From: an uncultured Chloroflexia bacterium
GTDB lineage: Bacteria; Chloroflexota; Chloroflexia; QHBQ01; JADMIH01
Assembly (NCBI GenBank): GCA_963797095.1
Contig: CAWCNY010000005.1
Location: forward strand, 615,425-679,424
Reading direction: 5' to 3'
DNA length: 64,000 nucleotides
The notes beneath the pieces were generated by a model, which ran no database searches, was not told where the DNA came from, and was given only the letters and a program-made list of their open reading frames with translations. The position numbers and the translations under genes are program-made. This document shows, piece after piece, positions 18,853 to 37,950 of the stretch (position 1 is its first letter; each line of letters starts with the position of its first letter).

Positions 18853-19035
18853 AGACCCCTCACCCCCGACCCTTCTCCCCGTTCGAACGGGGAGAGGGGA
18901 GAGTAAAAAGAGGAAGTAGAGTTGGGGGACACCCCCCAAACCCCCTGTCAGGGGAGTACCCCTGCACCCCTTTTGGTATGTGGCGGGAATATGATACCTT
19001 ACCCTGGCAGGGAAGTGCCTCTGCACCCACTCTGT
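18853..19035. repeat. Mosaic intergenic repeat element, copy R1 (module A hairpin + module B + a degenerate B)
   Basis: Begins AGACCCCTCACCCCCGACCCTTCTCCCC...GGGGAGAGGGG. This is followed by GAGTTGGGGGACACCCCCCAAACCCCCTGTCAGGGGAGTACCCCTGCACCCC. It lies upstream of gyrB. Confidence 0.85.
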
Positions 19036-19122
19036 GGGTGGAGATAGTAAATCCGCCTTCGGGACGGCCTTGTTGGGGCCGGGGAAGGCGGATTTTGTTG
19101 GGGCTGGTAGTGGGTCAGGGGT

Positions 19123-19899
19123 TTATTGGATTGTGAAGACTAGCACCTGCTCGAGGCCGGTGGAGAGGCCGTGGGCTACGAGGGAGTAGGTGCCATTGGG
19201 TAGGCCGGTGGTGTCGAGGGTGTAGGAGAAGGCACCGGAGTCGTCGGCGGAGGCCATAGCGTTGAGACCGACGACACCGTCTACTGTATCGGAGTTATCC
19301 TGTCCGAGGGAGTTACGGGGGACTGTGACGCCTGAGGGGACGTTAACCCAGAAGCTGATCCATTCGTCAGCTTCGTAGGAAGCGCCTGAGATGGTGATGG
19401 GTGTGCCAGCGGGAACGGCGCTGCTGGAAGCAGAGAGCTGAGTGGCCGGACCGTCCATAATTGTGAAGGTGAGCACCTGATCTTTACCGCTGGTGAGGCC
19501 GTGGGCTACGAGGGAGTAGGTGCCATTGGGTAGGCCGGTGGTGTCGAGGGTGTAGGAGAAGTTGCCATCATCATCGGCTGTGCCCATATCGTTGAGGCCG
19601 ATGACGCCGTCCACTATCTCGGTATTGGATTGGCCGAGGGAGTCGGGGGAGATTATAGTGCCTGAGGGCACGTTGACCCAGACGCCGACCCACTCATCGG
19701 CATCGAAGGAAGAGCCTGAGATGGTGAGAGGGGTGCCAGCGGCAACGGTGGAACCGCTAGCTGATGTTAGCGCTAATGGGGAGAGGAGGGAAGCAGTCAG
19801 GGTTTGCGCAGAGGCTCTTGTACTGCCGAGGAGGGTGGCAGCGAGGGCCAGAGTGAGACCAGGGGCCGCCATCCATTTGAAGTTGATCCTGGTAAACAT
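19123..19899 (-). CDS. Secreted protein made of two tandem ~110-aa repeat domains (hypothetical)
   Basis: An N-terminal signal peptide is present (MFTRINFKWMAAPGLTLALAATLLGSTRASA). Two near-identical domains correspond to a ~330-bp tandem DNA duplication. The upstream in-frame ATG at 19929 is an alternative start. Confidence 0.7.
   Translation of the reverse strand: MFTRINFKWMAAPGLTLALAATLLGSTRASAQTLTASLLSPLALTSASGSTVAAGTPLTISGSSFDADEWVGVWVNVPSGTIISPDSLGQSNTEIVDGVIGLNDMGTADDDGNFSYTLDTTGLPNGTYSLVAHGLTSGKDQVLTFTIMDGPATQLSASSSAVPAGTPITISGASYEADEWISFWVNVPSGVTVPRNSLGQDNSDTVDGVVGLNAMASADDSGAFSYTLDTTGLPNGTYSLVAHGLSTGLEQVLVFTIQ
19165..19825. repeat. Intragenic ~330-bp direct tandem duplication (two copies) within the secreted-protein gene
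   Basis: A 65-bp stretch (gaggccgtgggctacgagggagtaggtgccattgggtaggccggtggtgtcgagggtgtaggagaag) occurs identically at 19165 and 19495. The flanking sequence is also highly similar. Confidence 0.9.
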
Positions 19900-20047
19900 T
19901 TGTGTCTCCTGAAAGTGAAGGTTGACCATAAGGGTCCAGTCGGGTCGTTTCTTGTGTCAACTCCACTTTAATACGCGCACATTAATGACGGGCAGGAGAA
20001 GAATTAAGAGTTGATGAAAGGTTAGCCACCGCATGGCTTGATGGAGT

Positions 20048-21211
20048 CTACTTGTATGAGATCCTGGGATCAACGAGAGTGTAGAGGATATCAACAAGCA
20101 TGTTGGCGAGAGCTACGGCTACGATTAGCATGAGAGTGATGGCGAGAGTGAGAGGAAAGTCGAGGGGGAGGAGGGTCTGGCCGGGAGGGCAGGCAAACTC
20201 TCCTACCAGACTGGTGACGAGACAGCCGCCAAGGGCCTTGTAATAAAGTTGGCCCATGCCGGGATAGCCGAAGACCGATTCGACCATGATAGCTCCGGAG
20301 AGCACGACGGGCATCATGAGGCCAACGGTGGTGATTATGGGGATGAGAGCGTTGCGAAAGATGTGCTTGAGAACGACCCGCTGAAGGCTCAGACCCTTGG
20401 CCCAGGCGGTGCGTATGTAGTCGTGACCCAGCACTTCAAGCATCGAGAAGCGGAGCTGCCTGGAGAGGAGGGCGATCTGGGGTAGGGCAAGAGTAGTGAC
20501 AGGCAGGATGAGATGGTAGAGACGGTCGAAGACATTATTGACGGAGTCGCTGCTAGTGGAGGCGAGAGCGCCGGGGAGGTAGGGGAGCCAATCCCAGCCG
20601 AAGCAATTCCTGAACTGGTAGGGGAGTATGCCGAAGAGGACAGCGAGTATTAGGCCGAGCATAAACGGAGGGATGGAGAAGCCGGTAAAGGTAACGAGGG
20701 TGAGGATATGGTCAAGCCTGGAACCCTGCTTGATCGCAGCGATTATGCCGATAGGAATGGCGACAAGTACGGCAAGAACAAGGGCGAACCCGACCATCAG
20801 GAGTGAATTGAGCCAACGCGAGCCAATTACATCGTTTATGGGTTGAGATGGGATGAAGCGCGCACCAAGAACGCGTTCGGTGACGCCAAAATCGCCCGTG
20901 AGGATGCCGGAGCCTCGAATGTGGAGAGGGCCGATTGTAAAGTCAACGCCTTTGGGGATATTAGTCTGAACGTTGTCATCGTCGAAAACGGTGGAGAACA
21001 TATCGTCGGGGTCGAAGAGCCAGGCGAAAAAGCTGGCGGGCCAGGGTTTGCCGAGACCGTATTGTTGGTTGAGGGCCTGCTTTTCGACTGGGAAGCTCCT
21101 ATTGTACATAGCGGCGGGGCTGCCTGGCATCACATATACAAGGAGCGTGTGATGACTCCGCATGGCGTAAACGCCAGCAGCTTCTACGGTTTTGCACCGA
21201 TGCATACTCAT
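20048..21211 (-). CDS. ABC transporter permease, OppB/DppB-like. The canonical first transmembrane helix is not encoded in frame upstream, so the gene may be disrupted.
   Basis: Conserved OppB regions are present: the periplasmic loop with ...GDFGVT... and the EAA-like loop. The frame opens immediately after a stop codon with no hydrophobic TM1. Confidence 0.65.
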   Translation of the reverse strand: MSMHRCKTVEAAGVYAMRSHHTLLVYVMPGSPAAMYNRSFPVEKQALNQQYGLGKPWPASFFAWLFDPDDMFSTVFDDDNVQTNIPKGVDFTIGPLHIRGSGILTGDFGVTERVLGARFIPSQPINDVIGSRWLNSLLMVGFALVLAVLVAIPIGIIAAIKQGSRLDHILTLVTFTGFSIPPFMLGLILAVLFGILPYQFRNCFGWDWLPYLPGALASTSSDSVNNVFDRLYHLILPVTTLALPQIALLSRQLRFSMLEVLGHDYIRTAWAKGLSLQRVVLKHIFRNALIPIITTVGLMMPVVLSGAIMVESVFGYPGMGQLYYKALGGCLVTSLVGEFACPPGQTLLPLDFPLTLAITLMLIVAVALANMLVDILYTLVDPRISYK

Positions 21212-22233
21212 CCATATGCCATTAAGGTTGCACTATAGGAGACACCTAAGATGCTTTTACGCTGCACAAGGGTTTCGTGCAACAACCCGCTAACATCTTG
21301 CATTATCAAAGTGCGGACTACTACCCGAAGGCAATAGTGGCGTGTAGCATTGGTTAGCTTCCACGTAATACTGTAGGAAAGGCTTACCGTAGATGCGAGG
21401 AGATTGCCCCAGGAGACCAGGGGCGGGTCGTAGATGCCCTGATTGAAGTAGGCAAGGACGGCTTCCAGGATTATGAAGTCGCCAACGGCGAAGGTGGCGG
21501 CTACCAGGATGGGGGCAATTGTGTTGGGGAGGAGATGGCGGAAGATGACGCGCCGCCTTCGAGCGCCAAGAGCGCGGGCGGCCTCGATGAAGGGCTGGGT
21601 GCGGAGGGAGAGGATGGAGCCGCGTACGAGGCGAGCAAGGCCCATCCAGCCGAAGAGGGTGAAGACGAGGCTGATCACGCCAAGGGTCATGTAGACGCTG
21701 GTAGAGGGACTTTGCCAGAGGGGCATGAAGACCATGAGCTGGCGCAGGAGACGAAGGGTAAGCAGGAAGAGCGGGAGGAGTGGAAGGGCGAGCAGGAGAT
21801 CGGTAAAGCGCATGATGACGGTATCAATCAGGCCTCCGAAGTAGCCTGCGACGCCGTCCACCAGGGAGCCGATGAGGACCATGAGTAAGGTGGAGGCGAG
21901 GGCCACGAAGAGGGAGGTGCGCCCGCCGACGAGGAGGCGTGTCAGGTAGTCGCGACCAAGCCAGTCGGTGCCAAGCCAGTGGGTGCCGCCTTTGAGAAGG
22001 TCGGCTTCTCCGAAGTGAGCATAGCCCTGGACCGGATTCACCTCATCTACTTTGAACGAGGTGAACATGGGGACGAAAATGCAGGCCAGAGCGAGAAGGG
22101 CTAATGCGATAGCACCAGCGAGGGCACTCTTTTGCCTGCGAAAGCGCCGCCAGACAAGCGCAAATTGAGTTTCTGTACGTTTTGGTACAGCACTGAGTGT
22201 TTGCCCACCAGAGGTTAGGATTGCATCGGCCAT
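21208..22233 (-). CDS. ABC transporter permease, OppC/DppC-like
   Basis: The N-terminal transmembrane segment is followed by the HWLGTDWLGRDYLTRL motif and later the LSFLG...PPxxSWGN motif. The last ~60 aa do not resemble the canonical TM6 tail. Confidence 0.7.
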   Translation of the reverse strand: MADAILTSGGQTLSAVPKRTETQFALVWRRFRRQKSALAGAIALALLALACIFVPMFTSFKVDEVNPVQGYAHFGEADLLKGGTHWLGTDWLGRDYLTRLLVGGRTSLFVALASTLLMVLIGSLVDGVAGYFGGLIDTVIMRFTDLLLALPLLPLFLLTLRLLRQLMVFMPLWQSPSTSVYMTLGVISLVFTLFGWMGLARLVRGSILSLRTQPFIEAARALGARRRRVIFRHLLPNTIAPILVAATFAVGDFIILEAVLAYFNQGIYDPPLVSWGNLLASTVSLSYSITWKLTNATRHYCLRVVVRTLIMQDVSGLLHETLVQRKSILGVSYSATLMAYG

Positions 22234-22304
22234 GAGATTGTCCTGATGCTAAATGATAGGCTGTCCAGGATCATATCCTTTACTCTGGCCGGATGTTTGA
22301 GCTA

Positions 22305-23333
22305 TTACTCTAGTTCTGAGAGGAGTTGATCCTCTTCATCGTAGTTGGGGAGGGGGTATTGGGCAGGGTCGGGTGGGTTGGCGCGCTCCCAGGCTATTGT
22401 GTTTTGGAGGGATTGGGTGGGAGAGGTGGGTTCGATGTAGTTTAGCTCCTGGCGGATGCGGTCGCTGCTTACGGTCAGGTGCTGGGAGGTGTCGAGGGGG
22501 AGGTCGGTGCGGCCTTTGGGGACGAGGACAACACGGCCTTGCCAGCCTGTGATGTCGGCTATGAGGCGAACCCATTCGGCTTCGGGGTGGGAGGGGGATT
22601 CGGCTACGTTGTAGATGCGATTGGAGGCAGGGGGGTTGGTGGCGGCGAGGGTGATGGCCCAGGCTACGTTTTCTACGTAGCCGCGTGGAGAGTGCCAGGA
22701 GGCGAGGGTTTCGTCGAGGGGGATGGCGGGGCGGGCGTCGTCCATTGGTTTGATGTAGGAGTAGAGGCGGTGCTGGCTGTCGCCGGGGCCGTAGATCATG
22801 GGGAGGCGGAGGACGGTGCCGGGGAGGTTGGAGGGGTCGGAGAGGACGGCTTGCTCCACGAGGATTTTGTCGTAGTGGTCGAAGGGTTTGCGGGGGTGGT
22901 CGTTGGGGAGGGGTGGGTCGGAGCGGTAGGGGTAGAGGCGCTCGCGGAGAGGGGAATCTTCGGTGAGAGGGACGGGGTCGGGCGGGCCGGGCTCGATCTT
23001 GTTGAGGCGGGCGAAGGCGCGGTAGACATCGGCGCTGGAGAGGGCGACGATGCGAGCGGCGTGGCCTTTGAAGGCTTGCATGGCGGCGTTGGCGTCTTCG
23101 GCACCGTTGGCACGCATAAGGATCACTACGTCGGGGTTGAGGGCAGGGAGGTCGGAGGGGATGGTGGTTACGGGGAATTTGCCGTGAGGGCTGTGTATGT
23201 GGCGGACGGTGGGAGGGAGGTCGGGTTCGTGCTCGCCTGTGTGGAAGACGGTGACGGTGTGGCCGAGGTCAAGAAGCTGGCGGACTACGAAAGGGCCGAG
23301 GAAGCCTGTGCCGCCGATGAGGAGGATATGCAA
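22305..23333 (-). CDS. NAD-dependent epimerase/dehydratase (extended SDR family)
   Basis: An N-terminal Rossmann motif is present (ILLIGGTGFLG). A YxxxK-type catalytic region is present. Confidence 0.85.
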   Translation of the reverse strand: MHILLIGGTGFLGPFVVRQLLDLGHTVTVFHTGEHEPDLPPTVRHIHSPHGKFPVTTIPSDLPALNPDVVILMRANGAEDANAAMQAFKGHAARIVALSSADVYRAFARLNKIEPGPPDPVPLTEDSPLRERLYPYRSDPPLPNDHPRKPFDHYDKILVEQAVLSDPSNLPGTVLRLPMIYGPGDSQHRLYSYIKPMDDARPAIPLDETLASWHSPRGYVENVAWAITLAATNPPASNRIYNVAESPSHPEAEWVRLIADITGWQGRVVLVPKGRTDLPLDTSQHLTVSSDRIRQELNYIEPTSPTQSLQNTIAWERANPPDPAQYPLPNYDEEDQLLSELE

Positions 23334-23391
23334 CGCCTTGCTCCTTTCTTTATGGGGAGAAGGGATGGGGAGAAGGGCCCGATGAGACCCC

Positions 23392-23721
23392 TCAGTCTTG
23401 TTGTACTACCTGGCGGGAGATCTTGCCTATCGAGCCCCAGTGCTTGGCGTAGTCGGCCCTCAGGCGGGCGGCGGCTTCGCCGGAGCTGTAGCTCTGATAG
23501 TCGGCGAGGGAGGCGAATTCGTAGACGGTGATGTATTGGGCGGGCCAGTCGGCGGGGGTGGTGTCTTCGAGGACGCGGTATTTCCAGGAGCGGAGAACTT
23601 GAGGCTCGGCGGTGACTTCAGCCACATGGACGTTGGTGTGCCATTCGTTCCATTCGTCGAGTTTGTCTTCCGGGATCCACGTGCGGACTATGTAGAGCAC
23701 ATGTCCTGTGGAGTTGTCCAT
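23392..23721 (-). CDS. Small alpha+beta protein (Dabb/EthD-like or DUF4286-like; hypothetical)
   Basis: A 109-aa ORF in coding-like sequence, situated between two annotated genes. I have no motif-level assignment. Confidence 0.45.
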   Translation of the reverse strand: MDNSTGHVLYIVRTWIPEDKLDEWNEWHTNVHVAEVTAEPQVLRSWKYRVLEDTTPADWPAQYITVYEFASLADYQSYSSGEAAARLRADYAKHWGSIGKISRQVVQQD

Positions 23722-23811
23722 GATGTTTGCCTCCCATTGTACTCAGGTTTTATGGACGAAGATATGAAGAAGAAGGAAGTGCGTGGGCTACTTCAGTGGT
23801 ATTGTACCTGA

Positions 23812-25200: not shown

Positions 25201-25282
25201 GTTGGGTATTTCACTTCCTCTTGTGGTGACCGAGCAGGCTAGGCAAACCACCCGGTAATTTCGACTCATGTGTGCGCTTTTT

Positions 25283-25395
25283 GGATTGGTACGCTCCCGA
25301 AGTTTGATCCTGGAGAGCGAGATCCTTCGCTTCGCTCAGGATGACAAGGTCATCATGGGTTTGTTTCCTGACACATTTTCGTTAGCACGGTGATC
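25283..25395. repeat. Second repeat family, copy 1 (~100 bp, GAGCGAGATCCTTCGCTTCGCTCAGGATGACAAGG...CATTTTCGTTAGCA)
   Basis: About 80% identical to the copy at 39625-39740. It lies immediately upstream of MFS copy 1. Confidence 0.8.
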
Positions 25396-25418
25396 AGGAT
25401 GAGAGGGGTAAGCCGGGG

Positions 25419-26882: not shown

Positions 26883-26996
26883 GCTTTTCCCTGTGAATTA
26901 GATAAGTATCTCAGTGGATCTACTTTAGCAAATCGGTGACGGGATCGCCATCGGTCCTCAGGCGTATTTAGCGATGGGGGTGCCGGGTGCCGGGTG

Positions 26997-27021
26997 CCGG
27001 GGAAGCCGACGGCTTCCCCGG
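26997..27021 (-). terminator. Perfect 11-bp-stem hairpin (CCGGGGAAGCC-gac-GGCTTCCCCGG) downstream of MFS copy 3; possible terminator
   Basis: It lies 13 nt after the MFS stop codon on the minus strand. The downstream tract is not U-rich. Confidence 0.35.
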
Positions 27022-27033
27022 AGAAGGTGCGCG

Positions 27034-28299
27034 TCAGGCGGCGGCTACCTCCTTTTCCTCGCGCATCTGGGATAGTGGCACCTGGCCGGGGTCGCGCAGG
27101 AGGCGCAGGGCCAGGAGACCGGAGATTATCACCAGGAGGCACATGGCTGCCATGAGGAAGACCACGTAGAGGTGGCCGCCGAGCACGGTTGCCAGCACCC
27201 GACCAAAGAGGAGGAGGAGCGCCTGGGTGGTGTTGATGGTGCCGAAGACGCGCCCGCGATAGCGATCCTGGGTGAGGCTCTGGAACATGGTGAGGGCTCC
27301 TACATCGAGGCCGACCAGGGGTATGCCGACTAGGACCAACAGAGCCAGGTTAAGGGGAAGGATGGGAATGGAGAAGATGAGGAGGTCGACCACGCCAAAG
27401 AGGAGCAATCCATAGGAGACAAGCTGCCAGGCCTGGACTTTTTTGGAGACGAGGCCTATAAGGGCACCGCCCAGGAGTCCGCCGATGGCCTGGGCGGTCA
27501 TGAGCCAGCCAAGCTCGACGGAACCGCCTTTGAGGGCGTCGGTGACGTAGACGGCGAAGAGGACGGTGATAGCGCCGTCGGCGAGCCAGACCATGGTGGC
27601 CAGGCTGAGGATGGTGGCGAGGGTGCGGTTGCTGCGTATTACTGTGAGGCCCTCCAGCCACTCGCGGATGAGGTTTCTGTAGTGGAAGGAGGGGGGTGGC
27701 TCATCTTCGGGATGCCCGACGCGGGTTATGTTGCGAGGCGCGCTGATCAGGAGAATCAGGCTTGCGCCTATGACGAAGCTGGCTACATCGAGTACTACGG
27801 AGAGGTGGAAGCCGAAGAAGGCGAAGACTACGCCACCAACGGCGGGGCCGATGAGGCGGGCCAGGTTGTTGTTGAGGGAGTTGAGGGCGTTGGCGGTGAC
27901 GAGATCGCTTTCGCCTACGAGCTTGGGGAGGAGGGCGCTTTCGGCCGGATTGGAAAGCTGCCTGATTATGTTGGCGGTGATGGCAACCACATAGATCACC
28001 CAAACGTCGGCAGGGGTGTTGAAGAGGAAGAGGAGGGAGTAGACGGGGGCAAGCAGGAGGTTGGTTACTACGAGGATCTGCTTGCGGTCCAACCTGTCGA
28101 CGAAGACGCCGCCGAGGGAGCCGAGGAAGATGCCGGGGAGGGCGGCCACCACGAAGTAGAGGCCCATGGCGGCGACGGAGCCTGTGAGGTAGAGGGTGTA
28201 GAGGGGGAGGGCTGTGAACATGACCCAGTCGCCCATGAAGGAGATGAGGCCGCCCCACCAGAGGAGGGCAAAGTTGCGTTGTCTTAGTACTGCGATCAT
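27034..28299 (-). CDS. MFS transporter (EntS/DUF894-like), copy 3 of 3
   Basis: Twelve transmembrane helices are present. The VFVDRLDRKQILV motif is present. I placed the start at ATG 28299 because the longer ORF would run through repeat element R2. Confidence 0.85.
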   Translation of the reverse strand: MIAVLRQRNFALLWWGGLISFMGDWVMFTALPLYTLYLTGSVAAMGLYFVVAALPGIFLGSLGGVFVDRLDRKQILVVTNLLLAPVYSLLFLFNTPADVWVIYVVAITANIIRQLSNPAESALLPKLVGESDLVTANALNSLNNNLARLIGPAVGGVVFAFFGFHLSVVLDVASFVIGASLILLISAPRNITRVGHPEDEPPPSFHYRNLIREWLEGLTVIRSNRTLATILSLATMVWLADGAITVLFAVYVTDALKGGSVELGWLMTAQAIGGLLGGALIGLVSKKVQAWQLVSYGLLLFGVVDLLIFSIPILPLNLALLVLVGIPLVGLDVGALTMFQSLTQDRYRGRVFGTINTTQALLLLFGRVLATVLGGHLYVVFLMAAMCLLVIISGLLALRLLRDPGQVPLSQMREEKEVAAA

Positions 28300-28357
28300 G
28301 GTGTTTCTCCGTGGATGGGGCCGACCCCTCGAATGTTGTTTCACATTGGGTGAGCAA

Positions 28358-28565
28358 AGACCCCTCACCCCCGGCCCCTCTCCCCTTGTAGGGGCGAGGG
28401 GAGTTAATAATTGGTGAGGAGAGTTGTGGGGACACCCCCCAATCCCCCTGTCAGGGGAGGACCCCTGCACCCCCTTTCGTTGACGTGTAAAGGAGGGGTT
28501 GGGGGCACCCCTAATCTCCTGTCAGGGGACGCCGGGGTCTTTCAGGGTAATACCTCTGCACCCCC
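28358..28565. repeat. Mosaic intergenic repeat element, copy R2 (A + B + B)
   Basis: It has the same A and B modules as R1. It lies between the DUF4097 gene stop and the MFS-3 start. Confidence 0.85.
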
Positions 28566-28569
28566 TCGG

Positions 28570-29709
28570 TTAGCGACCGAGGCGGGTGATGGCGTCGAGG
28601 GCTTCCTGGGCTGACATTTCGCCGCGCTCTACCTTCTGGAAGATCTCTAGCTCGGCTTGCTGGCGAGAGACGTAACCTTCGGGCTGGGTGCGGTCGCCGT
28701 AGCTTTCGTCTGAGCGGCTGAGGTCGGTGGTGAGGGAACCGGAGGTGCCATCGCCATCGGCCCTAGGCTGCCTGCGCGGGTTGATGTTGATGTCACCGCT
28801 GACGGTTGATACCTGGATGGTGAGGCCGCCGCCGCCGTTGACTTCGAGGGAGGTCTCGCGCCTGCCATTGGCCTGGTACTTGACCTTGTCGCGGGGGAAG
28901 CCGCAGGTTACGGAGCCGCTGACGGTGCGGGTCTCAAGCTTGAAGCCGGCATCGGCAGGGGTGAAGACGGTGAGGTCGCCACTGACGGTGCGTACCTCGA
29001 AGTCCTTTTCAGGGAGCTTGACCATGTCGAGTTGCAGATCGCCGCTGGAGGTGTGCATGCTCAACTCATCGAGTGAGAGGTCGCGGGTGCGGATGTCGCC
29101 GGAGGCGGTGCGCACGCCCATCTTGCCTTCGAGGCCGGCAACGGTTATGTCGCCGCTGGCGCTGCTGACCAGGAGGTTGCCGCCCACGTTCTTGAGGCCG
29201 AGGTCGCCGGAGCTTGTCTGGCAAAGGAGGGTGCCTGTGACACCTTCGATCTTGATATCGCCGCTGCTTGTGCGAAGGTTGAGGTGGCAATTGTGCGGTA
29301 CTTTGATGTAGTAGTCGCGGCCACCACGCCAGTTGCCGAGGTTGATATCGACGTGGACGCCAAACCTGCTCATCCTGCGCATAGTGCGGTCGATGGCGCG
29401 CTCGATGTTCTTGCGCTCAAGGCTGGTGGCGGCCTTCGCCAGGTCTACGCCGAGGTCTTTCAGTTCCACGTCGCCGGGGTCACGGAAGTTGACTACTTTC
29501 TGACGGCCGGGGTTGTTCTTGATGGTGACGTTGGACCCTTCCTCGATTACATCGAAGTAACCATCGGGGTCGCTGATCGATACTTCGATCTCCTGCTTGT
29601 CCCATGCTTCAACGTAAACGTCGCCGGTGGGCTGTTCGAGGTTGACGCGGGGGGTTTCGTCGAATTCCGCTGTGGAAATCGTCTGTGTGTATCCTTGAGT
29701 TTCTGCCAT
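28570..29709 (-). CDS. DUF4097-family protein (LiaG / putative-adhesin-like beta-helix repeats)
   Basis: Repeated SGD(I/L)xV motifs are present (TSSGDIKIEG, SSGDLGLKNV, ASGDITVAG, ASGDIRTRD, SSGDLQLDMV, VSGDLTVF, VSGDINI). Confidence 0.8.
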   Translation of the reverse strand: MAETQGYTQTISTAEFDETPRVNLEQPTGDVYVEAWDKQEIEVSISDPDGYFDVIEEGSNVTIKNNPGRQKVVNFRDPGDVELKDLGVDLAKAATSLERKNIERAIDRTMRRMSRFGVHVDINLGNWRGGRDYYIKVPHNCHLNLRTSSGDIKIEGVTGTLLCQTSSGDLGLKNVGGNLLVSSASGDITVAGLEGKMGVRTASGDIRTRDLSLDELSMHTSSGDLQLDMVKLPEKDFEVRTVSGDLTVFTPADAGFKLETRTVSGSVTCGFPRDKVKYQANGRRETSLEVNGGGGLTIQVSTVSGDININPRRQPRADGDGTSGSLTTDLSRSDESYGDRTQPEGYVSRQQAELEIFQKVERGEMSAQEALDAITRLGR

Positions 29710-29783
29710 TTTGTTTGCCTCCTAAAGTGATTTTTGTTAGTCAGGTAGATTGGTAATAGGTCGCGGGCGTGTGTGAAGCGCCA

Positions 29784-30794: not shown

Positions 30795-30914
30795 GTAAGG
30801 TGTGATACGTTACTAACTTTGCGGGTTTCAGAGTTGGTGGCTGGTCCGGTTAAGTGGTGGCTTCCAAGTAGGGCGAGGCATGCCTCGCCCCTACAGGGGC
30901 TTTGAAAGGATTAC

Positions 30915-31178: not shown

Positions 31179-31241
31179 TGTCTTTCTCCTCTTATTTCCT
31201 CAGGGGTGCGTTCTGCACGGGTTGTGTGTTGCCTGTGACGG

Positions 31242-31748
31242 TTATCCGTAGATTTTCTTCATTGCCTCTGCGGCGCTGATCTTGCCGGCAGCCAGGTCAT
31301 CGAGTATTTTTTGCCTTTGCTCGGCGGACATCCTGGGGGGAGTGGGCGAAGTGGGTGGGATTGCCGGAATGGGCGGGGCGGGAACTGTGGGTGCGGGCGG
31401 AGCCGGCATGCGAGGCATCTGGGGCTTGAGGACCTGGGCCTCATAGTATTCGTACTGATCGACTTCGCTAAGCTCGGAGTCGTTGACGTCGTATCCCATG
31501 GCTTTGACTACTTCGTTGAGGCGAGCGACGACGGTCGGGTACGAGATCTCGAGTTCGTCTTCAACGTCTTTGATCTTGCCTTTGCATTTCATGAAGACTT
31601 CGACGAAGGCGACCTGCTCAGGTGTGAGGGCCTGTAGTCTGCCGAGGCCGAACGCGCCATCGATGCCTGTGCCGCAAGTGCCGCACTGCAACCGGGTGAC
31701 TGTAAGGGTGCTGTTGCAGATCGGGCATTTTCCTGGCATTTGATTCAT
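31242..31748 (-). CDS. DUF2089-family protein (zinc-ribbon + HTH) with a Pro-rich linker and a C-terminal SHOCT-like tail
   Basis: A CPICNSTL...CGTCG zinc ribbon is followed by a helix-turn-helix (LTPEQVAFVEVFMKCKGKIKDVEDELEISYPTVVARL). Confidence 0.75.
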   Translation of the reverse strand: MNQMPGKCPICNSTLTVTRLQCGTCGTGIDGAFGLGRLQALTPEQVAFVEVFMKCKGKIKDVEDELEISYPTVVARLNEVVKAMGYDVNDSELSEVDQYEYYEAQVLKPQMPRMPAPPAPTVPAPPIPAIPPTSPTPPRMSAEQRQKILDDLAAGKISAAEAMKKIYG

Positions 31749-31944
31749 TTTTCACAACCTCCGCATTCAGATTATCAATTTTGGTTTCAATATTCTCAAC
31801 TCTGCGGCCATCATATCACAGGAAATTGAGTTTGTCAAGTGGTAAATTGAGAAATTTAAGATGAATGTCAATAATCTTCATCTATTCTTTGAGTTTGTTC
31901 AAGATTGGTTGCTATTCTTACACTTCCTTGACTTTTGGGGTCCG

Positions 31945-32075
31945 GGGAACCCCTCACGCCAGCCCCTCTCCCCCGGTGGGGGAGAGGGGGTTAATAATTA
32001 GTGAGGGGAGTTGGGAGGACACCCCCAATCCTCCTCTCAGGGGAGTACTCCCTGCACCCCTTTGCAGGGGGTTTG
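31945..32075. repeat. Mosaic intergenic repeat element, copy R3 (A + B)
   Basis: The sequence is CCCCTCACGCCAGCCCCTCTCCCCCGGTGGGGGAGAGGGGG...GGACACCCCCAATCCTCCTCTCAGGGGAGTACTCCCTGCACCCC. It lies in the divergent intergenic region. Confidence 0.85.
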
Positions 32076-32373
32076 GGTGGTGGAGAGAGTAGAGGGTGGT
32101 CTGGTAATTGCTTGGGTGGGGAGGAGAGGAAAGGAGGGGTTTTGTGTGTAAGGTGAGCGCTAGTACTAATTCTATTGGGAATGAATACTTTTGGGCCGTT
32201 GCATTTTATTAGGTTCTGATATAACATATAGACACCGGGGGAGGGCCGGGTGCCACGATGTATCAAGGGCGTGTATATACCTCCGGGAATCCTCGTATTC
32301 GCGCTGGTGGGCGCACCGGCAATATAAATGCGACATAAATTAGGAAATCGGATAGAGAAGAGGAACCGCCAAT

Positions 32374-33183
32374 ATGCCAATTACCAGCACGAGAATGCCG
32401 ATTATCGGTATCTCTACAATTGATGACCATGACGCGGCAGGGATGCATGCCCCGCGCTTCAGCCTGAACCAGAGTTATGTGAAGGCTGTGGAGGCGGCAG
32501 GCGGCATACCGATCCTTATTCCTCAGTTGGAAGATGAAGGGGCGTTGCGCCGCATTTACGATATGCTGGACGGTATTTTGTTTCCGGGCGGGTTGGATAT
32601 TCACCCGAAGTTTTACGGGCAGGAGCCGCACCCGGCGCTTGACCCTACGGATATAGGGCTTGATTTTGTGGAGACTACGATATTGCCGTGGGCACTGGAC
32701 GACGACCTGCCTGTGCTGGGGATTTGCCGGGGCGAGCAGGTGATCAATGTGGTGATGGGCGGGACGCTGATCCAGGATATTTACAGCCAGTACACGACCA
32801 CTATTGACCACAGGGAGTCGTTCAAGAGGCGGATCAGGGATTTCCTGGCGCATGATATTGCTATTGACCCGGATTCGAGGCTGCGGACGCTGGTCGGGGA
32901 GGACCGCATATGGGTGAATACGTCGCATCACCAGGCTATTGATAAGGTCGCGCCCGGGTTGAAGGCAACGGCGTGGTCGCCTGACGGGATTGTGGAGGCG
33001 GTGGAAGCGCCTGACCGCCGTTTCTTGCTGGCGGTGCAGTGTCACCCCGAGGAGATGTGGCGCAAGCACCCGTGGGCGCGCAGGTTATTTAAGACGTTTG
33101 TGGACACGGCGTCGGATAGTATGGTTTCGCAGGGGCCGCACAGGTCGGCACTGCATTCTATGCAGGCTTTGCATTCGGCCTAA
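32374..33183 (+). CDS. Gamma-glutamyl hydrolase, class I glutamine amidotransferase-like (peptidase C26, PuuD-like)
   Basis: The catalytic Cys is in the GICRGEQ context. The HHQ...CHPE motif is also present. Confidence 0.85.
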   Translation: MPITSTRMPIIGISTIDDHDAAGMHAPRFSLNQSYVKAVEAAGGIPILIPQLEDEGALRRIYDMLDGILFPGGLDIHPKFYGQEPHPALDPTDIGLDFVETTILPWALDDDLPVLGICRGEQVINVVMGGTLIQDIYSQYTTTIDHRESFKRRIRDFLAHDIAIDPDSRLRTLVGEDRIWVNTSHHQAIDKVAPGLKATAWSPDGIVEAVEAPDRRFLLAVQCHPEEMWRKHPWARRLFKTFVDTASDSMVSQGPHRSALHSMQALHSA

Positions 33184-33240
33184 TGGGTTAGGCTCACCTT
33201 TTTTTGTTTGGGTATGCCCTAAGTTTGGGGTGCTTGCAAA

Positions 33241-33560
33241 GAGCCCTCACTCCCAGCCCCTCTCCCCTGCTAGGGGAGAGGGGAGTTAGTAATTAGTGAG
33301 GAGAGTTGGGGGACACCCCCGCCGCCCAGAGGGCACCCGCCCGGCAGGCAGTTCCGCCTGCACCCCCTTTAGCAATCGCGCCTGAGAGCTGGGATACGCC
33401 CAAACCGCTCGGCAGACTTTTCTGCCTGCACCCATGTTGGTGGAGTGTAAAGGAAAGGTTGGGGACATTCCAGAAACCCCCTGTCAGGAGGCGAAGTTCC
33501 CTGCATCTCTTTTTTGCCAATTGGGACCGCGAGTTGGGGGAAGTGTCCCAGATTCCCTTT
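33241..33560. repeat. Mosaic intergenic repeat element, copy R4 (A + ~3-4 B-like modules)
   Basis: Starts GAGCCCTCACTCCCAGCCCCTCTCCCCTGCTAGGGGAGAGGGGAGTTAGTAATTAGTGAGGAGAGTTGGGGGACACCCCC... Several variant B modules follow. It lies upstream of hutI. Confidence 0.85.
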
Positions 33561-33604
33561 CTGACCAGGGTGAAAGATGGGGCGGATTGGGGTATATTAG
33601 GGGC

Positions 33605-35014
33605 ATGAAAGAGCCTACTGCTAGCCTGATTATTCATTCGGCCTCCGAGCTTGTTACTTGCGCTTTGCCTTCTGCTAATTTGGAGGAACCTGCGCCTGCT
33701 CGTCCGGTGCCGGAGGTTGGGGGCCGGAAGGCGGAGGATGGAGGGCCGAGGCGAGGGTCTGAGCAGGGGGAGGCCGGGATCATCCATAACGGGGCGGTGG
33801 CGATCAGGCAGGGGCATATCCTGGCGGCCGGGGCGACCGAGGCGATTATGCCGAGGTATCGAGGGGAGGATACGCGCCTGATCGATGCTTCGGGGAAGAC
33901 AGTGACGCCGGGGCTGGTGGACGCGCACACGCATTTGGTGTGGGCGGGGTGGCGTGACGAAGAGTATGAACTGCGATTGAAGGGAGCCACCTACCTTGAG
34001 ATTATGGAGGCTGGGGGCGGGATCATGTCGACGGTGAGGGCGACGCGGCTGGCGGATGAAGACGAGCTAAAGGAGCTTGTGCGAGAGCGGCTGATGAGGA
34101 TGCTCGCGCATGGGACGACTACGGTTGAGATCAAGAGCGGGTATGGGCTGTCGGTTGAGGCAGAGTTGAAATCGCTGTGGGCTATACGGGACCTGAATAT
34201 CGAGTTGCAGGAAGCGGGGACGGGACCGCGCATCGCTGCTACATTTTTGGGAGGGCACGCTGTGCCGGAGGAGTACGCCGACAGTCCGGATGATTATGTC
34301 AACTTGATCGTTGAGAAGATGCTGCCTACTGTGGCACAGGAAGGATTGGCGGAGTGGTGCGATGTGTTCTGCGACGTAGGGGCGTTCAGCGCGGAGCAGA
34401 CGCGGCGGATATTGCAGAGGGCCACGGAGTTGGGCTTGGGGGTGCGGCTGCATGCTAACGAGTTCGAGAGGATCGGGGCGGTGCAGGTGGCGGCGGAGTT
34501 CGGGGCGGTGTCGGCTGACCATTTGCTGGTTATGGAGGAGGAGGATATCAAGGCGCTAAGGGACGCGGGAACGGTAGCGGTGCTGCTGCCGGGCACGCCG
34601 CTTGGGTTGGGGTTGAAGAATTATGCCCCGGCAAGGGCGCTCATTGATGCGGGGGTGCCGGTGGCACTGGCAACGGATTGCAATCCAGGGACGTGCCCAT
34701 CGGAGAACCTGGCGCTGATGATCTCGCTGGCTTGCTCGCAGATGAGGATGACGCCCACCGAGGCGACTGTGGCAGCCACGATCAATAGTGCATATGCGTT
34801 GAACAGGGGGCATATTGTGGGGAGCCTCGAGCCGGGGAAGATGGCCGACCTGGTGATCTGGAACGCGCCCAATCACCGGCATTTGGCGTATCATTTCGGG
34901 GTGAATTTGGCGGAAGCTGTATTTGTGGGTGGGGCGCAGGTCGGGGGTGGTTATTCGGAGACGGAGATCGAGGTCTACGTGGAAGAAGAGGCGATAGAGC
35001 GATTCTTGTCTTGA
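33605..35014 (+). CDS. hutI: Imidazolonepropionase (amidohydrolase)
   Basis: The DAHTHL metal-binding motif and the HutI C-terminal core are present. The start is set at ATG 33605, because the longer track ORF overlaps repeat R4. A low-complexity insertion lies near the N-terminus. Confidence 0.8.
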   Translation: MKEPTASLIIHSASELVTCALPSANLEEPAPARPVPEVGGRKAEDGGPRRGSEQGEAGIIHNGAVAIRQGHILAAGATEAIMPRYRGEDTRLIDASGKTVTPGLVDAHTHLVWAGWRDEEYELRLKGATYLEIMEAGGGIMSTVRATRLADEDELKELVRERLMRMLAHGTTTVEIKSGYGLSVEAELKSLWAIRDLNIELQEAGTGPRIAATFLGGHAVPEEYADSPDDYVNLIVEKMLPTVAQEGLAEWCDVFCDVGAFSAEQTRRILQRATELGLGVRLHANEFERIGAVQVAAEFGAVSADHLLVMEEEDIKALRDAGTVAVLLPGTPLGLGLKNYAPARALIDAGVPVALATDCNPGTCPSENLALMISLACSQMRMTPTEATVAATINSAYALNRGHIVGSLEPGKMADLVIWNAPNHRHLAYHFGVNLAEAVFVGGAQVGGGYSETEIEVYVEEEAIERFLS

Positions 35015-35103
35015 TATATGATTGGTCCACGGCACGCTAATTGCAATGTTATGCAATGAAGATTATGCCGATATATCCCTGACGGGGCTGATATTTCGGG
35101 GCA

Positions 35104-35655
35104 ATGGAGCCTACAATGAGCAAGCGGAAGAAGACAATAGTTGTGGATGGGGCCAATCTCGCTTATGAAGAGATGACGCAAGACCGCAAGCCGAAGGTCT
35201 CGAACATCAAGGCAGTGATGCAAAAGATCCGGGGGATGGGATTGCGTCCGATTGTGATCGTGGATGCGAGCCTGATACACGATGTTGATAAGCCGGACCA
35301 ACTGGATGCAATGATCAACTCAGGGCAGATCAAGCAGGTGCCCGCAGGGACGAACGCCGATTACTTTATTCTGAAGATCGCCAAAGAGCATAACGCGCAG
35401 ATCGTGACCAATGACCAGTACAAGGATTTTGCAAAGCAGTTCCCGAAGATCGATGAGCGCAGAGTGCCCGCTATGATCGTGGATGGTACGGTGGAGATAT
35501 ATGAGCCTGCGCTGAATGTAGCAGACAACGGCAATGGGCAGAACAACCACGACAGGCATGGCAGGGCGAACGCGCACCATAGCAATAAAGATGGTGGTAA
35601 GCGTCAAGGTAAAAGACAGGTGAATAAAAAGGAGAGGGCAAAAAGCTCGCCATAG
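35104..35655 (+). CDS. NYN-domain (PIN-like) putative RNase with a basic low-complexity C-terminal tail
   Basis: The N-terminus has the NYN-domain hallmark (KKTIVVDGANLAY...IVIVDAS...TNDQY). The gene and its flanks look lower in GC than the rest of the window. Confidence 0.7.
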   Translation: MEPTMSKRKKTIVVDGANLAYEEMTQDRKPKVSNIKAVMQKIRGMGLRPIVIVDASLIHDVDKPDQLDAMINSGQIKQVPAGTNADYFILKIAKEHNAQIVTNDQYKDFAKQFPKIDERRVPAMIVDGTVEIYEPALNVADNGNGQNNHDRHGRANAHHSNKDGGKRQGKRQVNKKERAKSSP

Positions 35656-35663
35656 GGAACGTA

Positions 35664-36728
35664 TTACGGCGCGCTGACGCTGAGGGTAAAGGCGGGGCGA
35701 ACCACGCCCACCACATCGCCGGGGCGATTGCGAACCTCTTCCAGCCAGTATCGTTCCAGCTTATTCAGGCTGTCTTCGTCCAGGAAGCCTCCCTGGCGCA
35801 ATCCTTCTATTATGGCGGGATTGCGCGCGCGCTGGGAGGGGTCGCCATCGAGCAGTTTGAGGGCAAAACCGGCGGCGGCCTCGACCGGATCGCCCAATTG
35901 CGCCACGCAGTAGACGCCCTCGGCCCCGGCTTTGGCTACGATGCCATCGGCGGCACGCATGAGGTCGGTGTCGATGCGACCCCTGGTGGCGGCCACCATC
36001 TCAGGATAGGCGCGCATGGCGGCGGTGATCCTGCGGACGGCGGTACGGCGCGGTTCGGGCCAGTATTCGGGCTGGCCGAGGCGGGCGAAAGAGGATGCCA
36101 TGCGATGCACGGAAATGCCGAAGGTGCAGACGCCGCAGCCGTCTACGCCAACGTGAACGTCGTTGGGGTGGAGGCCAGCGAAATCGGCGACGGTCTGGAG
36201 GATGGTTTGTTGAACGGGGTGGCGGGGGGATTCGTAGCCGCCGACGGGCCAGCCGTGGAAGCGGGCCAGGGCGAGCATGCCAGCGTGTTTGCCTGAGCAG
36301 TTGTTGTGGAGGACGGTGGGGGGCTCGCCGCGCTCTTGCAATTCGCGCGAAGCCTCTTTGTCGAGGGGAAAGTGGACGCCACAGGCGAGGGCGTCGGGGG
36401 TGAGGCCTATTTTGGAGAGAATTCTGGATACGACTTCGACATGGATGTCTTCGCCGCCATGGGAGCCGCAGATGATGGCGATCTCCTGTTCGGTGAGGCC
36501 GAAGTGGTCGGCAGCGCCACTTTCGACGAGGGGCACGGCCTGGATGGGCTTGGAGGAGGAGCGGTAGTAGGCAAGGGTGCCGGGGTTGCCCGCCCAGGCG
36601 AGTAGCTCGTTTTCGACGTTACAAATGGCGATGGCTCCAAAGTGGACCGATTCGATCATTGGGCCACGGGTTACTTCTACGAGGATGGCGGGGCTGCGTT
36701 CGGGGTTGTGTTTGGGGTCTGTTGTCAT
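35664..36728 (-). CDS. L-asparaginase II family protein
   Basis: The NCSGKHAGML motif and other asparaginase_II-family conserved blocks are present. Confidence 0.85.
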   Translation of the reverse strand: MTTDPKHNPERSPAILVEVTRGPMIESVHFGAIAICNVENELLAWAGNPGTLAYYRSSSKPIQAVPLVESGAADHFGLTEQEIAIICGSHGGEDIHVEVVSRILSKIGLTPDALACGVHFPLDKEASRELQERGEPPTVLHNNCSGKHAGMLALARFHGWPVGGYESPRHPVQQTILQTVADFAGLHPNDVHVGVDGCGVCTFGISVHRMASSFARLGQPEYWPEPRRTAVRRITAAMRAYPEMVAATRGRIDTDLMRAADGIVAKAGAEGVYCVAQLGDPVEAAAGFALKLLDGDPSQRARNPAIIEGLRQGGFLDEDSLNKLERYWLEEVRNRPGDVVGVVRPAFTLSVSAP

Positions 36729-36767
36729 GGGGGTCTCGTGATACGTGATACGTGGGGTCGTTAGTTG

Positions 36768-36800
36768 CTAGTTCCTGGTTCCTGGTTCCTGGTTGTTGGT
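36768..36800. repeat. Heptanucleotide tandem repeat (GTTCCTG, ~4 units)
   Basis: The run is tagttcctggttcctggttcctggttgttgg, between the asparaginase II start and the O-methyltransferase stop. Confidence 0.85.
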
Positions 36801-37502
36801 AGTCGGAGGTCGGTAGTTGGAGGGATGGGTTGGTTGTTGGGGATTGGGTAGTTTTAGGGTTATTGAGAGGCCGTCGCGCAGGGGGATTATTGTGGTTGTC
36901 AGGCGGGGGTGGTTGGAGACTGCTTTGTTGAAGGCGGCTATGCCCTGGGTGGAGGGGGAGGGGTTCTGGGGGTCCAGGACGCCGCCTGAGCGGATGGCGT
37001 TGTCGGATAGGAGGAGGCCACCAGGGCGGAGACGGCGGAGGCAGCGGTCGAGCATATGGAGGGCGGTGTCGGGTTTGTCGAACTGGGTGAGGATGTCGAG
37101 GAAGATTAGGTCAAAGCTCTCTTCCATGCCGTTCATGAGGACCAGGGCGTCGCCACGGCGGACGGCGCAGGTGCTGGAGAGATCGGCCTGGCGGAAGTAG
37201 GCTTCGGCCCAGGAGGCGCGGGCGTCGTCTTTTTCCAGGGTGACTACGCGGCCTTCGTTTTGGCGGGCGGCGAGGGCTAACCAGAAGGCGGAATAGCCGA
37301 TGGCGGTGCCGACATCGAGGATGTCTTTGGCGCGAGTGGAGAGGGCGAGGGTGTAGAGGAAGTGGCCCTCAATAGGGCCTATGATGGGGACGTTTTCACG
37401 CTCGGCGTGGGCTTCCATGTCGGCCAGGACGCCCTGGCGGGCAGGGATCAATGATAGTAGGTATTCTTCTACTCTGGGGTCTGTTATTCCGAAGTGTTTC
37501 AT
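36768..37502 (-). CDS. Class I SAM-dependent O-methyltransferase (caffeoyl-CoA OMT-like)
   Basis: The SAM-binding motif is present (ILDVGTAIGYSAFWLA) along with downstream family motifs. Confidence 0.85.
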   Translation of the reverse strand: MKHFGITDPRVEEYLLSLIPARQGVLADMEAHAERENVPIIGPIEGHFLYTLALSTRAKDILDVGTAIGYSAFWLALAARQNEGRVVTLEKDDARASWAEAYFRQADLSSTCAVRRGDALVLMNGMEESFDLIFLDILTQFDKPDTALHMLDRCLRRLRPGGLLLSDNAIRSGGVLDPQNPSPSTQGIAAFNKAVSNHPRLTTTIIPLRDGLSITLKLPNPQQPTHPSNYRPPTTNNQEPGTRN

Positions 37503-37544
37503 TTTTTGTGTTCTCTTTTTGTTTCTTACAGGTTGGGGTAGGAG

Positions 37545-37890
37545 AGACCCCTCACCCCCGGCACCTCTCCCCTATCAGGGGAGAGGGGAGTTAATAAAGA
37601 GAAGAAGTAGAGTTGAGGGGACGCCCCCCAAACCCCCTGTCAGGGGAGTACCCCTGCACCCCCTTCTGCTGTGTGTTAGGGAAGAGGCGACACCCCCAAT
37701 CCCCCTGTCAGGGGAGAACCTCTTCGCTCCCACTTTTGCCGGATAAGCGAGGAAAGAATTGGGGGAACACCTCCCGAACAGCCTGACAGGCTGTTTCGCC
37801 TGCACCCCCTTTGTGGTTGGGTGGTAGAGGAAGGGTTGGGGATACCCTAAGCCCCGCAGGCGACTTCATCGCCGCACCCCTTTTGTGCCT
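37545..37890. repeat. Mosaic intergenic repeat element, copy R5 (A + 4 B-like modules)
   Basis: Starts AGACCCCTCACCCCCGGCACCTCTCCCCTATCAGGGGAGAGGGGAGTTAATAAAGAGAAGAAGTAGAGTTGAGGGGACGCCCCCCAAACCCCCTGTCAGGGGAGTACCCCTGCACCCCC... It lies upstream of the O-methyltransferase gene. Confidence 0.85.
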
Positions 37891-37950
37891 GGATAGTGTA
37901 GGGAGATGAAGGCACGCATAACCCTCGGTAAGCGGTTTCGGTTGCGCTCT

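Follow-up and report, generated by a model that had tools for sequence, protein, structure and literature searches.

Small extragenic repeats that fold into hairpins are known from several groups of bacteria. The repetitive extragenic palindromes (REPs) of enterobacteria, mobilized by RAYT tyrosine transposases, are short, imperfect and GC-rich palindromes present in many extragenic copies, which form mosaics with other motifs known as bacterial interspersed mosaic elements (BIMEs); in these, the palindromes alternate in orientation and have set linker motifs between them. The BOX elements of Streptococcus pneumoniae have the structure boxA-boxB(n)-boxC, and the Correia/NEMIS and ERIC elements are miniature inverted-repeat transposable elements (MITEs). 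We have analyzed here a stretch of 64,000 nucleotides from an uncultured Chloroflexia bacterium (GCA_963797095.1, contig CAWCNY010000005.1, positions 615,425 to 679,424), hereafter named the window, which contains five intergenic loci with a hairpin-rich element made up of two modules, A and B. We think it fairly probable that these loci are copies of a non-coding, modular, Chloroflexota-wide repeat family of the REP/BOX/MITE type that has spread as mobile blocks.

A sequence-only reading of the window had proposed five intergenic loci with two modules in varying copy number, and all five were found where it had placed them, on the + strand. Each of them is comprised of one A module, a purine-rich linker and one to four B units, in this order, as confirmed by nhmmer and by a covariance model of B (R1). 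This model was built from 125 B copies that do not belong to the window (alignment A1) and was run over the whole 64 kb with the filters off. It detected 10 B units (E 3e-16 to 0.014), all of them on the + strand and within the five loci, and no match with E<0.01 outside them in the 64-kb window. Since R1 was built without window sequences and still recovers the window copies, these copies belong to a large family that is defined without them. The parts of the loci are the following:

18850-18904, + strand: A module of locus 1, with the CCCTCACCCCC box and then the hairpin CCCTTCTCCCCG/CGGGGAGAGGGG, which has one G.T (nhmmer E 1.7e-10).
18907-18984, + strand: B unit 1 of locus 1, the best window copy; its span takes in the purine-rich linker with GTAG (R1 62.6 bits, E 3.3e-16).
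18985-19043, + strand: B unit 2 of locus 1, degenerate (R1 14.5 bits, E 0.014; repeat-finder families D8/D9).
28353-28408, + strand: A module of locus 2 (nhmmer E 5.8e-13).
28410-28487, + strand: B unit 1 of locus 2 (R1 53.2 bits).
28488-28578, + strand: B unit 2 of locus 2, diverged, with a larger second hairpin (R1 27.3 bits).
31947-31996, + strand: A module of locus 3, with a perfect hairpin of 11-12 bp (nhmmer).
31997-32074, + strand: single B unit of locus 3 (R1 40.2 bits).
33236-33290, + strand: A module of locus 4, located 3' of a separate terminator-like hairpin at 33177-33203 (nhmmer).
33291-33380, + strand: B unit 1 of locus 4, with an additional hairpin between its two B hairpins (R1 39.1 bits).
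33389-33433, + strand: weak B remnant of locus 4, which keeps only the second hairpin, GGCAGA..TCTGCC, and then TGCACCC (R1 6.5 bits, E 2.5; family D8).
33443-33523, + strand: diverged B unit of locus 4 (R1 27.3 bits).
33531-33561, + strand: remnant of a B 5' half (GAGTTGGGGGAAGTGTCCC) in locus 4, 44 nt 5' of the hutI start codon (family D5).
37541-37595, + strand: A module of locus 5 (nhmmer E 2.2e-12).
37599-37676, + strand: B unit 1 of locus 5 (R1 53.5 bits).
37683-37738, + strand: B unit 2 of locus 5, weak and degraded at its 3' end (R1 8.3 bits, E 0.77; nhmmer E 0.0027).
37744-37822, + strand: B unit 3 of locus 5, whose second hairpin CAGGC/GCCTG is a compensatory variant (R1 29.4 bits).
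37823-37894, + strand: B unit 4 of locus 5, with the second hairpin GGCGA/TCGCC (R1 20.1 bits).
40815-40880, + strand: possible sixth A-like module, degenerate and without B, GACCCCACCC..GTCCCTCCCC-AGAG-TGGGGAGGGAC-TTTCAAAATAAAG, seen by eye only and not detected by the A hidden Markov model (HMM) at E<0.01.

The distal B units of the window are strongly degenerate, and the 3' flank of B unit 2 in locus 2 extends to the stop codon of a LiaG-like gene. A fixed leading module followed by a variable number of tandem hairpin modules of about 45-55 nt, in intergenic and non-coding DNA near gene starts, is shared with the BOX elements. In contrast, no terminal module like boxC was recognized, the sequence appears to be unrelated, the host belongs to another phylum, and A and B also occur separately.

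The sequence-only reading left open whether the modules recur beyond these five copies, and they do so widely. A loose scan pattern in which only the ends of B are specified, GGGGACRCCCCC-N18-40-CCTGCACCCC, found at least 120 metagenome contigs from soil, sediment, groundwater and hot springs, and the middle of the unit, which the pattern leaves free, is the same in nearly all of them. In the genome collection the same pattern found at least 116 stretches from about 35 genomes. Among the genome matches listed, to which the restriction to the phylum applies, 115 of 116 are titled Chloroflexota and the remaining one "uncultured bacterium"; they come from Dehalococcoidia including SAR202, Chloroflexia, Anaerolineae, Ardenticatenaceae, Caldilineae, Thermoflexus, Ktedonobacteraceae and two Dictyobacter isolates, and several metagenome-assembled genomes (MAGs) carry at least 10 B copies each. 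The consensus of 131 further copies in the loci retrieved, which do not match the scan pattern, is the same B consensus, with 70-99% conservation per core position.

The possibility that the loci are a local artefact, i.e., a segmental duplication, a chance similarity of GC-rich DNA or a set of small coding genes, deserves practically no credence. It is true that the copies cluster in 19 kb, that exact-word searches found no others in the rest of the 64 kb, and that a strict pattern for the window variant (..CCTGTCAGGGGAG..) has no match in the genome collection. Nevertheless, this explanation is refuted by the recovery of the window copies with R1, by the hundreds of copies in other genomes, and by the flanking sequences of the five loci, which are mutually unrelated when read directly and with a repeat finder. 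A coding origin is excluded too, since the distance between the conserved blocks of B takes every value modulo 3, and thus, B is not protein-coding.

Carriage by phages or plasmids was also considered and rejected, because there was only one match in 2.9 million viral contigs and one short match in plasmids, chance-like and limited to the A-module region, in a Cupriavidus plasmid. The window had no match in Rfam at the gathering thresholds. Searches of the literature on the sequence of the repeat, on Clostridiales-2, on Chloroflexi-1 and on Chloroflexota repeats or MITEs found no description of the family. We classify it as a new member of the small mosaic extragenic repeats, unusual for its extreme conservation and its polarity relative to GC skew.

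The B unit has about 50 nt and two GC-rich hairpins. The first one, x-GGGGG-ACA-CCCCC-x', has a covarying closing pair x/x' and is followed by a spacer of 1-6 nt; the second one, which together with its flanks reads CCCCC-G-[GCAGGGG-variable tip-CCCCTGC]-A-CCCCC, is an imperfect palindrome with a recurrent T.C or A.C mismatch at the fourth pair. Conserved C5 tracts flank the hairpins and are unpaired in the two-hairpin model. The structure was tested on an alignment (A2) of 150 genome copies that was fitted to the model and whose sequences are mutually related: 88.8% of the cells are paired, versus 55-67% when the partners are slid by 1-3 columns, changes on both sides (compensatory) occur at 12 of the 15 base pairs, and none of 500 shuffles matched the observed pairing values. 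The conserved secondary structure that the sequence-only reading had expected is thus borne out by compensatory changes in both B hairpins. As single-stranded DNA or as RNA, B would fold into two hairpins amid C5 tracts.

The A module reads (G)CAAAGA-CCCCTCACCCCC-NN-CCCCTCTCCCC-loop-GGGGAGAGGGG-AG, followed by an AT-rich box similar to TTAATAA, and its core consists of the CCCTCACCCCC box and then the CCCCTCTCCCC/GGGGAGAGGGG hairpin. This hairpin had been described as perfect; it is present in all five loci, but it is perfect in only 2-3 of the five window copies, with one mismatch each in loci 1, 2 and 5. The two linker subfamilies, one in loci 1 and 5 and another one in loci 2 to 4, are as claimed. 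In the copies of loci 2 to 4, a CCCTCAC box is able to pair with GTGAGG of the linker, and in locus 3 the linker GTGAGGGG is able to pair with the CCCCTCAC box of the A module. When folded in silico, the window composites are only modestly more stable than shuffled sequences (z -0.7 to -2.8).

The compensatory changes in a core conserved across the phylum would also be expected for a functional structured RNA, selected for its role in transcripts and with MITEs as its mere carriers. The strand usually read would then be opposite to the original C-rich orientation, i.e., GGGGGUGCAGGGG..CCCCUGCCGGGGG..GGGGGUGUCCCCC, and the RNA might be a hairpin for mRNA 3' ends or processing, a module for an RNA-binding protein, or a CU-rich regulator of the downstream gene resembling an anti-Shine-Dalgarno sequence. 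We consider this explanation possible, albeit with a rather low probability. The base pairs do not reveal a transcribed strand, since the wobble counts (GT+TG 68 vs. AC+CA 42) and the 73 T.C mismatches give no signal. The opposite strand of B folds more stably, but its richness in G would suffice to explain this. We also considered a closing helix specific to each copy, in which the purine-rich linker would pair with the CACCCCC-UUU tail, and rejected it because real pairs were no better than permuted ones (-10.7 vs. -10.8 kcal/mol), a result that speaks against a functional RNA. On the other hand, B is nearly invariant, except for the tip of hairpin 2, at three orthologous loci whose flanks are 80-85% identical, while the remaining spacer has diverged, which would favor a selected RNA.

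The genomic context bears on this question too. According to a codon-usage gene finder, checked on known window genes, and to the nhmmer matches in the fetched loci, 353 of 357 B copies (about 99%) are intergenic. Taking B in its original (C-rich) orientation, both flanking genes are antisense in 77 cases and sense in 28, whereas 42 copies lie between divergent and 40 between convergent genes. Therefore, between co-directional genes about 73% of the copies are antisense to those genes, so that the opposite strand would be transcribed in 77 vs. 28 cases. In Dictyobacter aurantiacus, B is located in the transcribed 16S-23S spacer, antisense to the ribosomal RNA (rRNA), with two units in one operon and one in another (L188:3301-3447, L160:1431-1480). 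Both observations would agree with an RNA read from the opposite strand. However, all four gene configurations occur, 42 copies lying between divergent genes, and no recurrent protein family was found beside B among 236 fetched loci, so the neighbors are unrelated and there is no consistent gene association. In addition, B is repeated in tandem, up to 8 times at intervals of about 70 nt in L137 and with a period of 87 nt in L063 and L075, and inverted pairs occur in an Anaerolineae MAG (L124 and L204). Such arrays, together with decay and insertion polymorphism, are typical of repeats and not of regulators.

In the window, the genes whose starts lie near the loci (gyrB, MFS, DUF2089, hutI and O-methyltransferase) begin roughly 40-200 nt from their respective loci, a placement that would also suit an RNA acting on its neighbors. 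The earlier claim that the element sits upstream of gyrB, MFS, hutI and O-methyltransferase genes holds according to gene calls and family scans, and has to be extended with locus 3. Locus 1 is about 156 nt upstream of gyrB (16766-18694, - strand), locus 2 about 54 nt upstream of an MFS transporter gene (- strand), and locus 5 is 39 nt upstream of an O-methyltransferase gene (- strand); hutI (+ strand) starts 44 nt downstream of locus 4, and locus 3 lies between divergent genes encoding a DUF2089 protein (- strand) and a glutamine amidotransferase (+ strand). A riboswitch or another gene-specific leader was rejected because these genes are unrelated and there is no common neighboring gene.

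Canonical intrinsic terminators were likewise discarded, as the terminator scan flagged no A module or well-scoring B unit in the window; its calls inside the loci are only two weak sites of 5-6 pairs (33534-33551, +; 37775-37763, -). Furthermore, loci 1 and 4 are each located downstream of a separate terminator-like hairpin (19050-19100 and 33177-33203, respectively), and thus, the elements themselves are not the terminators of those upstream genes. A scan for consensus sigma-70 promoters did not flag any A module or well-scoring B unit. A promoter-like site (GTGAAA-17-TATATT, 33570-33607) ends 6 nt 5' of the hutI ATG at 33605, and this position suggests that the hutI mRNA may be leaderless or near-leaderless. 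The longest open reading frames (ORFs) of MFS (27034-28470) and hutI (33434-35014) extend 5' through the repeat elements, their true starts being likely at about 28299 and 33605. Automatic annotation would over-extend both genes into the repeats, which are a source of assembly and annotation artefacts.

The clearest signs of mobility come from soil. Two soil contigs that are 99% identical, L030 and L059, are distinguished by a block of about 105 nt (L030:2948-3054) that L059 lacks and that consists of a small hairpin, a purine-rich linker and B. The full element of this soil subfamily has about 125-135 nt and terminal inverted repeats of about 16-17 bp, TGACATCCACTCATAA...TTATGAGTGGATGTCA, found in at least 12 paired copies, and at least 7 of the 10 copies examined are bordered by direct repeats of 8 bp. 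This combination is the signature of MITEs, and the soil subfamily is clearly a MITE. It resembles the Correia/NEMIS and ERIC elements in its terminal repeats, 8-bp duplications, empty site and internal hairpins. It differs from them in that the conserved part is the internal cargo and not the terminal repeats, and the flanking repeats vary by lineage or, in the window, none is detectable. For example, the A-B core of the Chloroflexota MAG JBDTQH01 has another inverted repeat at its flanks, TTTCAAGGGTAGGTT...AACCTACCCTTGAAA.

Whole blocks of about 105-135 nt are gained or lost, as a classical MITE in at least one lineage. Single B units are also gained or lost in tandem, which alters the length of the arrays; the two rRNA operons of D. 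aurantiacus, with one and two units, illustrate such a change within one genome. The copies that remain are almost all intergenic and decay where they are, as exemplified by the distal B units of the window. By analogy with REP and BOX elements, the hairpins might, once transcribed, form stem-loops in the RNA and thereby buffer the 3' ends of mRNAs or modulate the genes nearby.

Several observations weigh against a repeat family spread in this way. There are no convincing terminal inverted repeats or target duplications around any of the five window loci, which look old; locus 1 is surrounded by a 7-bp GGTGGAG repeat that could be due to chance. No transposase, RAYT included, was detected among 20 proteins scanned around the window loci, and none is recurrent beside B in the 236 loci. 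No autonomous insertion sequence (IS) with the terminal repeats of the MITE was found in 1.35 Mb of loci, which is a small sample; all the terminal-repeat pairs in it are separated by about 108 nt (by 288 nt in L061) and have only B between them. Moreover, the same B core is found within different terminal-repeat shells, which is more in line with a selected cargo than with a purely selfish element. B is conserved across whole classes of a phylum, far more widely than the usual REP or MITE families, and its near invariance at orthologous sites suggests purifying selection or another constraint, or else concerted evolution. The orientation bias described below points to single-strand transposition, whereas terminal repeats and target duplications point to a DDE transposase, and one mechanism may not cover all the lineages. 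Lastly, any effect of the elements at the RNA level is something that we only infer.

The orientation of the copies is not random. Considering the 48 loci with |GC skew| >0.05, 74 of 86 B copies (86%) have their C-rich strand on the G-rich DNA strand, and this is so regardless of the majority gene strand, i.e., 32 vs. 7 when most local genes share the G-rich strand and 42 vs. 5 when they do not. As the coding-strand GC skew averages about 0 in the carrier genomes, the local skew mostly reflects a strand-wide process, presumably linked to replication. The skew of the window + strand is uniformly positive (0.03-0.34 per 2 kb) and amounts to +0.17 in genes of the + strand, +0.22 in those of the - strand and +0.14 in spacers. 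All five loci put their C-rich strand on this + strand despite the differing orientations of the flanking genes. The + strand contains GGGGG 185 times and CCCCC 28 times, 23 of the latter inside the repeat loci; all 13 occurrences of CACCCCC are inside the five loci, and all 27 of GGGGGTG outside them. We also observed that 27 of the 35 confidently called genes of the window, including gyrB, are on the C-rich strand, contrary to the common tendency of genes to be oriented along the G-rich leading strand.

We infer that this polarity is caused either by strand-specific insertion at replication forks (HUH-type) or by selection against a C-rich, Rho-loading-like sequence in mRNA. Insertion into single strands at forks is known for IS200/IS605 and has been proposed for REPs. 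GC skew is a better guide to orientation than the strand that holds most of the local genes, which is a further argument against a functional RNA. This would rather suit a strand-polar DNA signal, in which a conserved Chloroflexota protein, acting in a replication-oriented process such as recombination, segregation or the handling of forks, would recognize the three CACCCCC (GGGGGTG) boxes and the extrudable hairpins on DNA, or in which the four G/C tracts of each unit would form a G-quadruplex or i-motif. The polarity shared by most copies independently of gene strand, the co-orientation of the window loci in a strong and uniform skew, the strict partition of the two heptamers between the elements and the remaining DNA, and the unpaired C5 tracts would all agree with such a signal. 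The lengths of the G/C tracts are also correlated, albeit weakly and with shared ancestry and overlapping matches as confounding factors. Nonetheless, we regard this explanation as improbable: the stems carry compensatory changes, which speak for a single strand that folds and not for a duplex binding site, the copies are clustered and sporadic, unlike dispersed polar signals, as the five loci fall within 19 kb and the remaining 45 kb has none, and their polarity opposes the genome-wide bias of G runs.

The repeat family can be compared with REPs in more detail. Besides their palindromes and mosaics, REPs share with it the occurrence of single, tandem or inverted-pair copies, plausible RNA stem-loops, and an orientation bias compatible with single-strand transposition. 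However, we found no sequence relation between them. The unpaired GTAG tag at the 5' end of REP palindromes is absent from the consensus of 125, 150 and 131 copies and appears only in the linkers of window loci 1 and 5 and in a few other copies; the foot of B hairpin 2 reads CGGC, CGTC or TGTC, but these bases are paired in the two-hairpin model. REPs avoid promoter regions, whereas B is about equally frequent between divergent and convergent genes (42 vs. 40). The window units are all direct, in contrast to the alternating orientation of BIMEs, and inverted pairs are limited to some genomes (L204, L124). Finally, REP families are conserved at the level of genus or family and B throughout a phylum. 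Hence, the proposed likeness to BIME/REP or MITE elements is right as to kind, i.e., a recurrent and structured repeat with a MITE subfamily, but not in the strict REP/BIME sense, given the lack of a GTAG tag and of alternation, and given that no RAYT was found among the proteins scanned.

A superfamily of CGTC-tagged REPs has stems of 8-9 bp that start with A-T pairs, loops of 4-5 nt and a CCA tail, and has been reported in Proteobacteria, Chlorobi, Bacteroidetes, Spirochaetes and Thermotogae; the sole Chloroflexi family listed in that survey of 2013 is GTAG-23 of Thermomicrobium roseum (PMC3733652). Compared by description and not by consensus, these REPs share with B small palindromes after CGTC/TGTC, a short C-rich tail and the absence of a known dedicated transposase (PMC3733652).

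The sole similarity to an Rfam family is with Clostridiales-2 (RF02937), a candidate small RNA (sRNA) that shares about 25 nt with the reverse complement of B hairpin 2 and its flank, GGGGGUGCAGGGG-loop-CCCCUGCCG. A permissive scan gave 22-28 bits on the opposite strand of four of 12 loci, the gathering score being 58.6, and the rest of the model was unmatched in these other loci; in the window there was no match even at E up to 10. That this similarity falls on the opposite strand would again favor a functional RNA. The host phylum of RF02937 is different from Chloroflexota. In L028, L088 and L103 the reverse complement of B hairpin 2 resembles the 5' hairpin of RF02937, GGGGGUGCAGGGG..CCCCUGCCG, and a related hairpin module may exist in Firmicutes, judging from this resemblance.

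The association of the two modules was also found elsewhere. According to the A HMMs, A is located directly 5' of B on the same strand in eight loci of JBDTQH01 (L130, L132, L144, L149, L155, L184, L216 and L220), and the A-linker-B composite is also present in loci from soil (L043) and from groundwater and sediment (L109, L117, L118), in a Dehalococcoidia MAG (L121) and in another Chloroflexota bacterium (L200). Nevertheless, A precedes only 27 of the 307 B units that are first in their arrays, and 24 of 55 A copies have no B. The two modules are thus separable, and "mosaic" is an accurate term. Only the JBDTQH01 copies have a U-rich tail following the A hairpin. The nesting of one element in the loop of another's A hairpin, hinted at by L155, was inconsistent in L144 and L220 and is not claimed here.

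Eight window genes (40970-48737) are syntenic with L216 of JBDTQH01, with 55-84% amino acid identity, and this assigns the window organism to Chloroflexota as a relative of that MAG. In L216:7590-7722, the ortholog of the window gene 40970-42265 is followed by an intrinsic terminator and then by a B'-A' element. The syntenic place of the window, 40815-40880, contains only the A-like hairpin GTCCCTCCCC-AGAG-TGGGGAGGGAC, without any recognizable B, and it may be a decayed orthologous copy of the L216 A-B element, as judged from synteny and from the remaining hairpin.

Other repeats were observed in the window. Heptamers repeated in tandem form about 18 short arrays, most of them in spacers, with units such as GTGGCGA, GGATTTT, GTTCCTG, GGTAGTC, GCGGAGT, CGTACTG and GACTAGG, which recall the STRR repeats of cyanobacteria. 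In JBDTQH01, an array of a similar type, (CGGTACT)n, is found after an A-B element (L149, ~3630-3680, - strand). Heptamer arrays are located at these positions of the window:

4948-4982, heptamer array
15561-15617, heptamer array
26978-27001, heptamer array
36771-36794, heptamer array
42303-42348, heptamer array
43542-43572, heptamer array
45312-45348, heptamer array
46996-47060, heptamer array
52150-52188, heptamer array
52401-52450, heptamer array
55490-55547, heptamer array
57864-57953, heptamer array
59075-59098, heptamer array
60832-60865, heptamer array

Two 289-nt direct repeats with 80% identity and 330 nt spacing (19130-19748) lie inside the gene of an Ig-like-domain protein (19123-19929) and are probably an internal domain duplication. 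Two 133-nt copies with 77% identity (25270-25402 and 39612-39744; family D13) are found 14.3 kb apart, at or near gene boundaries. Within the ORF 47736-48737, a 15-nt unit (TTCGACCGGTGCTGT) is perfectly repeated in tandem 4.8 times (48570-48641); the repeat is in frame, and thus would encode a 5-residue peptide repeat.

Small extragenic repeats have been well studied in Proteobacteria and Firmicutes, whereas almost nothing was found in the literature searched for Chloroflexota, a large and mostly uncultured phylum. The A-linker-B composite might even be a functional nucleic-acid module of Chloroflexota, merely disseminated by MITEs and tandem duplication, a proposal that we find doubtful. If it were true, three hairpins and three CACCCCC boxes, with a polarity fixed relative to a replication-associated asymmetry, would be read by a lineage-wide factor, which would recognize them in single-stranded DNA at forks or in the RNA of operon and rRNA spacers. 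The module would then be comparable, at the level of a phylum, to a polar chromosomal signal or to a global element for RNA-protein recognition. As a family of mobile repeats, a nearly invariant unit of about 50 nt, present from Dehalococcoidia to Ktedonobacteria and whose named genome matches listed are all from Chloroflexota, offers a phylum marker for annotation and binning. It also provides a test case for the long-term persistence of repeats, be it by co-inheritance with a domesticated transposase, by selection on the hairpins or by repeated capture by MITEs, and its strand polarity offers a way to weigh single-strand insertion against selection in complete genomes.

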